From Candidatus Bathyarchaeia archaeon (GTDB lineage: Archaea > Thermoproteota > Bathyarchaeia > Bathyarchaeales > Bathycorpusculaceae), in the NCBI GenBank assembly GCA_038727135.1, contig JAVYWL010000001.1, positions 672,001 through 736,000 of the forward strand: a DNA stretch of 64,000 bases, given 5' to 3'. The position numbers and the translations under genes are program-made. The notes beneath the pieces were generated by a model. The model was given only the letters and a program-made list of their open reading frames with translations, ran no database searches and was not told the DNA's origin. Numbering within the stretch: position 1 is the first letter of the stretch; each line of letters opens with the position of its first letter. Below are positions 51,744 to 52,804 of this stretch, one piece after another.

Positions 51744-52247
51744 TTAGTTTTCCACTTTTCTTGCATATCTTTTATCTATGCCACCTCGGTGTAAAGCCTC
51801 CAGAATAGCAAATCCAATGATGTTAATCGCCACAACAGAGCCTAGGAAAATACCGAATAATCCAATCTCCACCGGAACATTAAATATGAGCGCTAGGTAA
51901 CCTCCAACGATTATTGTTATCGTGGCGTTTTCCACAAAACATGCCATAAGCCTACGGGCAACACTCTTTCCACCGACAAGCCAAGCCAAGACACATGCAA
52001 CAAAATTTGCAGCGGTGCCGCCAACAATATCAATTATGCCCAAGCCACCATAAACGTTGGCAACCAAACACCCCAAACTAGTTCCAAGAGCAACAGGCAC
52101 GCCGAAAACCACTGACAGAGGCAAAAGCGCGTCGGCAACCCTCACTTGGTATATCCCAAAGCTTATAGGCGCCAGAAAAATCACGCCAGCAGCATACAAC
52201 GCCGCAAAAACCACTGTTAAAGCCAAATCCTTACTACCAAATTTCAA
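51744..52247 (-). CDS. queT: QueT family 7-deazaguanine precursor transporter (ECF S-component)
   Basis: FAALY..LAPISFG.YQVRVADAL..L, GCLVAN, DIVGG. Confidence 0.88.
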   Translation of the reverse strand: MKFGSKDLALTVVFAALYAAGVIFLAPISFGIYQVRVADALLPLSVVFGVPVALGTSLGCLVANVYGGLGIIDIVGGTAANFVACVLAWLVGGKSVARRLMACFVENATITIIVGGYLALIFNVPVEIGLFGIFLGSVVAINIIGFAILEALHRGGIDKRYARKVEN

Positions 52248-52313
52248 TTTTCCACCTCCCTACGCCGGGGTTTGTATGGCGGAACGGGTGGGAGGTCCCA
52301 CTCACCCGCCAAC
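52248..52313 (-). ncRNA. Candidate translational riboswitch/pseudoknot leader of queT
   Basis: Stem GGCGGGUG/CACCCGUU, loop anti-SD ACCUCC(C), hairpin CGCC/GGCG, SD GGGAGGU. Confidence 0.55.
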
Positions 52314-52338
52314 AAAACAGCAATAACCACAAGGCAAC

Positions 52339-52346
52339 TATAAAAA
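52339..52346 (-). promoter_or_regulatory. TATA box of queT transcript
   Basis: TTTTTATA preceded by purine-rich CAAAAGAATG (BRE-like), about 28 nt before the structured leader. Confidence 0.6.
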
Positions 52347-52357
52347 CATTCTTTTGT

Positions 52358-52804
52358 TCAGTCCTCTCTTTTCGCTTCTCCAGCAGCTTCGCCCTCAACC
52401 TTCATAGCCGCTTCAGGCTCAATAGAGACGCCCTCAGCTGGTACTTCTTCCCTTCTGAAAAGGAGAAGGTCTATTGGCGGCGGAGGCGTGTTCAAAATCG
52501 TCGAGAGCAAGTACATAGCCGTAAAGGTATGCTGATAAACTTTCTGGAAAACATAGGGCACCTTTGTTTCGGGGTCAACCTCCAACATCTTATTTATCTC
52601 CGCATCTTTTCCCGTAAGTGTTGCGGTGCCCTCCACCTCAAATTTGACAATGCCCGGCTTCGTTGTCAGTTGGAGGTTAAAACCGACAACCACTGTTTGG
52701 CTTCTTCTTTCCTTCTCTTCAAGCCTAGCCTTAACATCAAAATTGACGGTTCCAGCCCCGCCCTTAACGTCCAGCTTAACCCCTACAATACTTGTAACAT
52801 CCAC
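52358..52804 (-). CDS. Hypothetical protein, possible SecB-like fold
   Basis: Beta strands, then helices ending LNTPPPP; acidic tail; frame open about 50 nt further upstream. Confidence 0.65.
   Translation of the reverse strand: MDVTSIVGVKLDVKGGAGTVNFDVKARLEEKERRSQTVVVGFNLQLTTKPGIVKFEVEGTATLTGKDAEINKMLEVDPETKVPYVFQKVYQHTFTAMYLLSTILNTPPPPIDLLLFRREEVPAEGVSIEPEAAMKVEGEAAGEAKRED

Follow-up and report, generated by a model that had tools for sequence, protein, structure and literature searches.

Excerpts of a 2024 review (PMC11625349) list three classes of preQ1 riboswitches. According to these excerpts, class II (preQ1-II) is located upstream of the transporter gene queT in Bacillota and comprises helices P1–P4 organized as an HLout pseudoknot, with the Shine–Dalgarno (SD) sequence residing in P3, and class III (preQ1-III), also found upstream of queT and coming mostly from metagenomic sequences or Ruminococcaceae, is ~100 nucleotides (nt) long and built of five helices (PMC11625349). 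The riboswitches reported in archaea belong to the fluoride and thiamine pyrophosphate (TPP) classes, as stated in an extract of PMC5473149, and preQ0 is inserted by archaea into tRNA as the precursor of archaeosine, as stated in an extract of PMC5372724. Here we analyze a 57-nt RNA element which precedes queT of a Candidatus Bathyarchaeia archaeon and is encoded within a 64,000-nt stretch of contig JAVYWL010000001.1 (hereafter, the window). It is near certain that the element is a real, widespread and structured cis-regulatory RNA. Based on comparison of sequences and gene neighborhoods, we propose, with a probability of about 0.7, that it is a translational OFF riboswitch responding to 7-deazaguanines and most likely sensing preQ0.

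Three helices and two mutually exclusive folds in the queT leader

The minus strand of the window contains the leader quoted in the original prediction without any deviation, running from about 52313 to the TTG start at 52247-52245, and the gene downstream of it is queT, as claimed there: its 167-amino acid (aa) product matches PF06177 with an E-value of 2.3e−24 and a score of 86.8 bits against a cut-off of 33.7, so that the Pfam gathering score is passed. A protein search found QueT homologues in 51 of 61 related genomes, and the same ~75-nt leader lies directly upstream of the gene in 27 of the 30 returned QueT loci. Leaders are nearly identical even where QueT identity is just 34−41%, and the RNA element is far better conserved than the QueT protein. 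The original prediction had named orthologous leaders, examined by means of a covariance model and for conservation and covariation, as the place where it could be checked. This check came out in its favor: the element is conserved, and P1, P2 and the pseudoknot, described below, all covary.

Nucleotides of the element are numbered as n = 52311 − window coordinate, n1 being the first G of GGCGGG (Table 1). We aligned 125 distinct copies with MAFFT without regard to structure and then counted the pairs; percentages and counts of pairs given below refer to this set of sequences. Helix P1 (six pairs, n1–6 with n28–33) is 99.3% paired. Its outer pair occurs as GC in 88 sequences, AU in 22, GU in five, CG in three and UA in three, whereas its fifth pair is GC in 114 and CG in 11, and is unpaired in none. 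Helix P2, enclosed by P1, consists of six pairs (n8 and n10–14 with n19–23 and n25, leaving an A9·C24 mismatch), is 90.3% paired and displays double changes at all six of them; pair U11:A22, for example, appears as UA in 93 sequences, GC in 15 and CG in four. Taken jointly, P1 and P2 have a covariation score of 0.192, as compared to 0.090 ± 0.006 for shuffled controls, none of which (0 of 500) reaches it, and to at most 0.102 when the partners are slid. Together these helices correspond to what the original prediction presented as an alternative fold, GGCGG/CCGCC enclosing GUGGG..CCCAC, which is also the minimum free energy fold of the leader.

Pairing of the hairpin loop with the SD in a pseudoknot, another element of the original prediction, can be drawn in the window as ACCUCCC opposite GGGAGGU and is borne out by many compensatory changes. 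Moreover, a search of every copy for duplexes joining the interior of the hairpin to the 3′ tail extended this pairing beyond its initial version: the helix is longer and also links ACCCG, from the 3′ side of the hairpin, to CGG and GU in the linker. The resulting 12 pairs link n15–26 to n44–57 (A15–C21 with G51–U57, A22:U49, C23:G48, C24:G46, C25:G45 and G26:C44, with N47 and A50 bulged), are 88.2% paired and show double changes at nine positions out of 12. The covariation score of P1 together with the pseudoknot is 0.245, as compared to 0.118 ± 0.006 for shuffles (again, 0 of 500 reach it, and such counts overstate significance, as the shuffle controls disregard kinship of the sequences) and to at most 0.085 for slid partners. 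The variety of anti-SD/SD couples across lineages is a stronger argument than the shuffle counts. By eye, we could distinguish CCUCCC/GGGAGG, CCUCC/GGAGG, CCUCCU/AGGAGG, CCUUCC/GGAAGG and CCCUCU/AGAGGG, as well as CCCUCC/GGAGGG, UCCGAC/GUCGGA and CACCUC/GAGGUG. Copies from the phylum of a record titled Promethearchaeota, which we take to be the Asgard archaea, have the couple CCUCGCA/UGCGAGG.

The strand n15–26 can pair either with n8–14, giving P2, or with n44–57, giving the pseudoknot. Both helices make use of n19–25 and hence are mutually exclusive, and both covary. Position 22 changes together with its two partners, the combination being U-A-U in 81 sequences and G-C-G in 15. A shared strand covarying with both of its partners is as expected of a switch. 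In ViennaRNA calculations, P1 with P2 amounts to −19.7 kcal/mol, P1 alone to −9.1 kcal/mol (P2 adding about −10.6 kcal/mol) and the pseudoknot duplex to −17.7 kcal/mol before any knot penalty; by this rough estimate, the hairpin and pseudoknot states are plausibly close in energy. In addition, a set of nucleotides, U7, U27, A38–A40, C42 and C43, is invariant or nearly so and lacks a Watson–Crick partner in either state. Within loop L3, A38 is 99% conserved and A39, A40, C42 and C43 are invariant, and no Watson–Crick partner was found for the AAA-N-CC motif which they form.

Other pairings of the original prediction fared less well. The 8-bp stem between GGCGGGUG and CACCCGUU can indeed be drawn with a 12-nt loop and is 93.5% paired, but its covariation equals that of shuffles. 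The fifth pair of this stem is broken in 12 sequences with GGCGCG; the 11 sequences with C there keep P1 through a C:G pair. Similarly, the small hairpin CGCC/GGCG can be drawn in the window, but its pairing amounts to just 72%, the G:N pair fails to form in 80 of the 125 sequences, and the hairpin competes with P1. With this hairpin unsupported, the suggested likeness to the extra hairpin of preQ1-II fails.

Two more candidate pairings were rejected. A 3′ hairpin over the SD (ACCCC/GG.GGU), obtained with RNAalifold from the first 27 sequences, reaches 66.5% pairing and covaries no more than shuffles do. Pairing of GGG (n12–14) with CCC (n41–43) in the pseudoknot state shows no covariation by eye and is also disfavored by reasoning, as G14 and A15 would sit at opposite ends of the stacked helices.

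The TATA box of the original prediction is present as well, and its position recurs. Of 124 orthologous upstream regions, 52 contain a TATA-like octamer (at least seven of eight matches), and in 42 of these 52 strong-match loci the octamer begins 31–36 nt before P1. Given the usual archaeal distance between TATA box and start site, transcription would begin a few nucleotides before P1, and the spacing in orthologous loci thus suggests that the element forms the 5′ end of the mRNA. At the other end of the element, at least 108 of 132 orthologous loci have an in-frame start codon 3–12 nt past the purine core, most often at 7 nt; the number is a lower bound, starts having been missed at 24 of the 132 loci, partly for technical reasons. 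The 108 assigned start codons comprise 54 TTG, 32 ATG and 22 GTG. That TTG, used also in the window, should be the commonest start behind the motif is unusual and may hold basal expression low.

Distribution of the element and the genes downstream

A covariance model (R1) was built from the 27 leaders of relatives. In the window's own genome it has a single strong copy (96.9 bits, E = 9e−28), and the next match on the sense strand scores 16.4 bits. This runner-up (G000:C1:218338-218425, minus strand, E = 0.065) is probably a chance match. Across the window's class, R1 had matches in 94 of 151 sampled genomes (73 of 95 when counting high-quality genomes, and 54 of 80 when counting genera). In a phylum-wide sample, 29 of 151 genomes were positive; copies outside the class but within the same phylum come from four families (10 of 15, 3 of 3 and 2 of 2 genomes, plus one further genome), and none were found in families of the phylum with 19, 13 and 13 sampled genomes. 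In the Promethearchaeota-titled phylum the model matched 16 of 121 genomes, one of which (L266, 24% G+C, no QueT) was discounted.

We also scanned genomes of named species with a loose IUPAC pattern. R1 confirmed 19 of the 80 matches listed, all of them archaeal by title. These 19 confirmed matches among those listed include 15 from Bathyarchaeia/Bathyarchaeota, two from Promethearchaeota, one from Methanomethylicota and one from an 'archaeon'. None of the other 61 matches listed, mostly bacterial, was confirmed by R1; the scan is no census, and on absence from bacteria it speaks solely for these 61 chance matches.

The pooled set consists of 139 distinct copies from the class, other classes of the phylum and the Promethearchaeota-titled phylum, 136 of which are followed by at least 300 nt of DNA. 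Using a profile built from phmmer-positive downstream open reading frames (ORFs), we found a QueT homologue downstream on the same strand for 132 of the 136 copies, in 131 cases within ~180 nt. The exceptions are of two kinds. In locus L182 the element precedes a radical-SAM gene, for which four QueE models are the best NCBIfam matches (E ~1e−25, below the cut-offs). In L063, L065 and L170 the place of QueT is taken by a multi-pass membrane protein of 232–234 aa. The latter has no Pfam or NCBIfam family, and its neighbors in the protein atlas are clusters automatically named energy-coupling factor (ECF) transporter S component (score 0.94), which is a lead only; we regard this protein as a candidate new 7-deazaguanine transporter.

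Genes of preQ0 synthesis also occur in combination with queT. In L085 a 101-aa QueT fragment is followed by QueC (TIGR00364, 196 bits, cut-off 150). In L016:272-2590 (genome G052) one strand carries, in this order, the motif, a QueT of 160 aa, a QueC of 223 aa (PF06508, 209 bits) that overlaps this QueT by 19 nt, a second QueT of 176 aa and an HD-domain protein, and a similar operon-like array is present in L017 (G060). Thus, the downstream genes, encoding QueT, QueC, the QueE-like protein and the ECF-S-like protein, fit transport or metabolism of one ligand. The occurrence of QueT, QueC and QueE-like genes indicates that the element heads genes for import and synthesis of preQ0, and the link to 7-deazaguanine metabolism, made in the original prediction, is upheld.

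The window's own genome (G000; seven contigs, 94.7% complete) encodes TGT (C3:70802-71770, 281 bits). Within this assembly we found no real QueC, just weak PP-loop matches of at most 31 bits in ORFs of ~280–520 aa, no PTPS/QueD, and no clear QueE, the QueE-like query yielding radical-SAM core matches of 19–24 bits. The presence of TGT without these enzymes suggests that the organism probably depends on imported preQ0 for tRNA modification, and feedback control of the importer would fit such dependence.

Several further observations concern the genes adjoining the element. In same-genus loci L023, L026, L027 and L028 the leader is nearly identical to that of the window (51744-52400) and the end of the upstream gene is kept, yet QueT is 36–38% identical to that of the window and ~20 aa longer, which suggests that these relatives exchanged the transporter gene while retaining the switch in front of it. 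The 3′ end of the 148-aa upstream ORF is likewise kept beside the leader within the genus. In L239, L242, L240, L241, L254 and L256 the layout of the start site departs from the main type: an in-frame extension of 40–60 codons comes before the QueT domain, or the domain is situated at some distance downstream of the motif. In L097, L239 and L242 the 3′ partner is not SD-like, yet the pairing still abuts the start codon. Finally, L010:1372-1500 (plus strand, G054) and L268 (G456) have a distinct leader of ~125 nt that is unmatched by R1 and precedes a QueT 57% identical to that of the window. This leader, seen in two of 11 genomes of its genus, still opens with GGCGGGU..CCGCC followed by ..ACCCC, and might represent either a variant or a separate, second element.

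Table 1. The queT leader and adjoining features. Coordinates are those of the window, except for the last row.
Feature	Position	Strand	Remark
Upstream ORF, 148 aa	52358-52804	-	no Pfam family; stop at 52358
TATA box TTTTTATA	52339-52346	-	from sequence; predicts transcription start at ~52316, a few nt 5′ of P1
Whole element, 57 nt	52254-52310	-	between TATA box and TTG start
P1 5′ strand GGCGGG, n1-6	52305-52310	-	covariation
Hinge U7	52304	-	100% U in 125 sequences; between P1 and P2; first nt of L1 in the pseudoknot state
P2 5′ strand GAGUGGG, n8-14	52297-52303	-	competes with SD region for the shared strand; freed as L1 in the pseudoknot
Switching strand ACCUCCCACCCG, n15-26	52285-52296	-	apical loop, P2 3′ strand and G26; holds the anti-SD
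Loop L2 = U27	52284	-	94% U; one nt at the P1/pseudoknot junction
P1 3′ strand UCCGCC, n28-33	52278-52283	-	covariation
Loop L3 AUACAAACCC, n34-43	52268-52277	-	A-rich, then CC; candidate minor-groove/ligand-pocket strand, judging from H-type geometry
Pseudoknot 3′ strand CGGCGUAGGGAGGU, n44-57	52254-52267	-	includes SD GGGAGG
Shine–Dalgarno GGGAGG	52255-52260	-	within pseudoknot 3′ strand
TTG start of queT	52245-52247	-	7 nt past SD core
queT coding sequence, 167 aa	51744-52247	-	PF06177; predicted 7-deazaguanine precursor transporter, S component type
Membrane protein, 232-234 aa	L063:1371-2072 (+); L170:5327-6022 (-); L065		

Proposed mechanism and alternative explanations

We propose that the element would act in cis as a riboswitch at the 5′ end of queT mRNA. 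The two-state logic of the original prediction holds, with the revision that P1 would stay formed in both states. In the ligand-free State A, P1 and P2 would coexist, n15–26 folding back on n8–14, so that the anti-SD would be hidden and the SD and TTG start would be free. In the ligand-bound State B, n15–26 would instead pair with n44–57 (CGG, GU and the SD GGGAGGU), resulting in an H-type pseudoknot stacked on P1, with n7–14 as L1, U27 as L2 and n34–43 as L3. The putative ligand pocket would be made up of U7, U27, A38–A40, C42 and C43 at the junction of P1 and the pseudoknot and in the P1 minor groove. By stabilizing State B, the bound ligand would occlude the mRNA from the SD up to the start codon, and translation would fall. 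The unvarying middle of P1 and the invariant adenines of L3 suggest State B as the evolved aptamer, with the ligand at the junction. As the regulated genes import or make preQ0, negative feedback would be a sensible logic. Since the pathway represented by QueT, QueC and QueE-like genes ends at preQ0, the latter is our best guess for the ligand; preQ1 or another 7-deazaguanine is possible.

A number of observations weigh against this proposal or make it less secure. Folding of the single leader is not exceptional: its minimum free energy of −28.2 kcal/mol (z = −0.78) is matched or surpassed by 36 of 200 shuffles. Besides the disregard of kinship by the shuffle controls, the three pseudoknot pairs next to the junction (C24:G46, C25:G45 and G26:C44) and the middle of P1 are constant, so that no covariation signal is possible there. 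That an L1 of 8 nt could span a 12-bp helix was judged by a rule of thumb. When up to six candidate starts were allowed per ORF, 16 of the 46 ORFs of the window had an SD motif near one of them, at a background of 6% per try; by this crude test no SD enrichment is shown across the window, which leaves conserved spacing as the argument for SD-dependent initiation here. In L100, L240 and L241 the QueT domain begins far downstream, and SD occlusion is maybe not the whole story. Expression data were scarce: three raw metatranscriptome runs, of which ~3–5% each was sampled, gave 0, 0 and 1 read, the latter from the coding region. When metatranscriptome data were mapped, pieces from relatives in one contig set piled onto the conserved motif.

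The same two-state leader could answer to a macromolecule, such as an RNA-binding protein or unmodified tRNA, rather than to a small 7-deazapurine. The conserved loops could serve as a protein-binding site, and an extract of PMC5473149 reports that archaea use few known riboswitch classes. On the other hand, the element has 57 nt only, the same invariant junction nucleotides recur not only across the class but also in additional families of its phylum and in a second phylum, and we saw no conserved neighboring regulator, the family-less ORF upstream varying between loci. Besides, its tight tie to transport and synthesis genes of one metabolite is a classic riboswitch pattern, and we find a macromolecular effector unlikely. 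Another way to do without a small ligand is a translational attenuator or RNA thermometer, in which the balance of hairpin and pseudoknot would keep QueT at a low, maybe temperature-dependent level. Such behavior would be in line with the roughly isoenergetic states, with the frequency of TTG starts (54 of 108), which fits low expression, and with the 'hot springs metagenome' label of run records containing related sequence. However, it needs neither invariant unpaired nucleotides, whereas U7, A39, A40, C42 and C43 are invariant throughout the alignment, nor gene specificity, whereas the window's own genome has a single copy and nearly all copies precede genes of one pathway; a switch of this kind is therefore very unlikely.

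A ligand could also act in the opposite direction, binding the P1–P2 state and freeing the SD. The conserved A·C mismatch of P2 and the asymmetric internal loop (U7/G26–U27) could then form the pocket. Yet a product inducing its own import and synthesis through QueC and QueE-like enzymes makes no regulatory sense, and the invariant A and C nucleotides of L3 would have no role in the hairpin state, coming to lie at a helical junction in the pseudoknot only; such an ON switch is highly improbable. Finally, the element might belong to bacterial preQ1 class I, II or III as a strongly diverged member, which we consider quite unlikely. The A-rich strand following P1, which resembles that of preQ1-I, counts in favor of such kinship. 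So do the association with queT, as in classes II and III, and the burial of the SD in a pseudoknot helix, as in class II, described in the review excerpts (PMC11625349). However, according to the same excerpts class II occurs in Bacillota, and class III, coming from Ruminococcaceae or metagenomic sequences, takes up ~100 nt with its five helices, as against 57 nt here (PMC11625349). Also, no P4-like hairpin is present, and none of the Rfam 15 families, including preQ1-I/II/III, matched the window at E ≤ 10 (positions 51900-52700 and 52230-52330) or 19 diverse copies at E ≤ 1. The expectation that the element falls outside the known preQ1 classes is thereby supported. A literature search, which did not extend to subscription journals, found no description of an archaeal queT, preQ0 or archaeosine riboswitch. 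Given these limits, the chances that the class is not yet described are about even or slightly better.

Implications and comparison with described riboswitches

If the preQ0-responsive OFF switch proposed here is real, metabolite-sensing RNAs would be native to archaea and form a widespread layer of their gene control, as the element is common in Bathyarchaeia (~60% of sampled genomes) and also present in other lineages of Thermoproteota and in the Promethearchaeota-titled phylum. It would provide a native archaeal riboswitch class that can be tested in vitro with an RNA of 60–80 nt and commercial bases. As a probable preQ0 sensor, it would reveal the balance that archaea strike between salvaging the archaeosine precursor and making it. 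It would add a fourth independent RNA solution to 7-deazaguanine recognition, useful for understanding the evolution of RNA folds, and would offer genetic tools for archaea a translational switch of natural origin. It would also serve as a genomic marker of new 7-deazaguanine transporters, such as the 232–234 aa membrane protein.

The element has the general traits of riboswitches, namely, a covarying putative aptamer in the predicted 5′ untranslated region (UTR), mutually exclusive pairing coupled to the SD and downstream genes devoted to one ligand, the identity of the latter being a prediction. With preQ1-I (RF00522) it shares an H-type pseudoknot, a short P1 with an A-rich strand after it and a 3′ helix overlapping the ribosome-binding site. 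PreQ1-I has a size of roughly 34 nt; in contrast, the archaeal element is about twice as large, differs in loop organization, possesses an additional, competing hairpin and is not matched by the model of this class.

Based on the review excerpts, the archaeal element resembles preQ1-II (RF01054; the COG4708/queT motif) in its location in the queT 5′ UTR, its presumed control at the level of translation and the use of a hairpin-loop anti-SD to bury the SD in a pseudoknot helix stacked on the lower stem (PMC11625349). It differs from preQ1-II in being archaeal rather than from Bacillota and in having no match to the covariance model. Moreover, instead of an HLout knot with P4, it has a 10-nt single-stranded A-rich linker and a plain H-type knot, with a G-rich L1 and a 12-bp pseudoknot helix that competes with the internal hairpin P2. 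The likeness to preQ1-III (RF02680) includes the position upstream of queT and the docking of a hairpin-loop anti-SD with the SD of the 3′ tail, as described in the same excerpts (PMC11625349). However, the helices supported here are just three, namely, P1, P2 and that of the pseudoknot, and the preQ1-III model does not match. In addition, the pocket of preQ1-III is, according to these excerpts, far from the SD helix, whereas here the SD helix abuts the conserved junction (PMC11625349).

The fluoride and TPP classes are bacterial classes shared with archaea. The present element, in contrast, is archaeal in all 19 confirmed loci among the matches listed. Overall, we see about an even chance that the element represents both a fourth structurally independent class for 7-deazaguanine precursors and the first archaea-specific riboswitch class, one that would recognize preQ0 rather than preQ1 and would bury the SD by strand exchange into an H-type pseudoknot.

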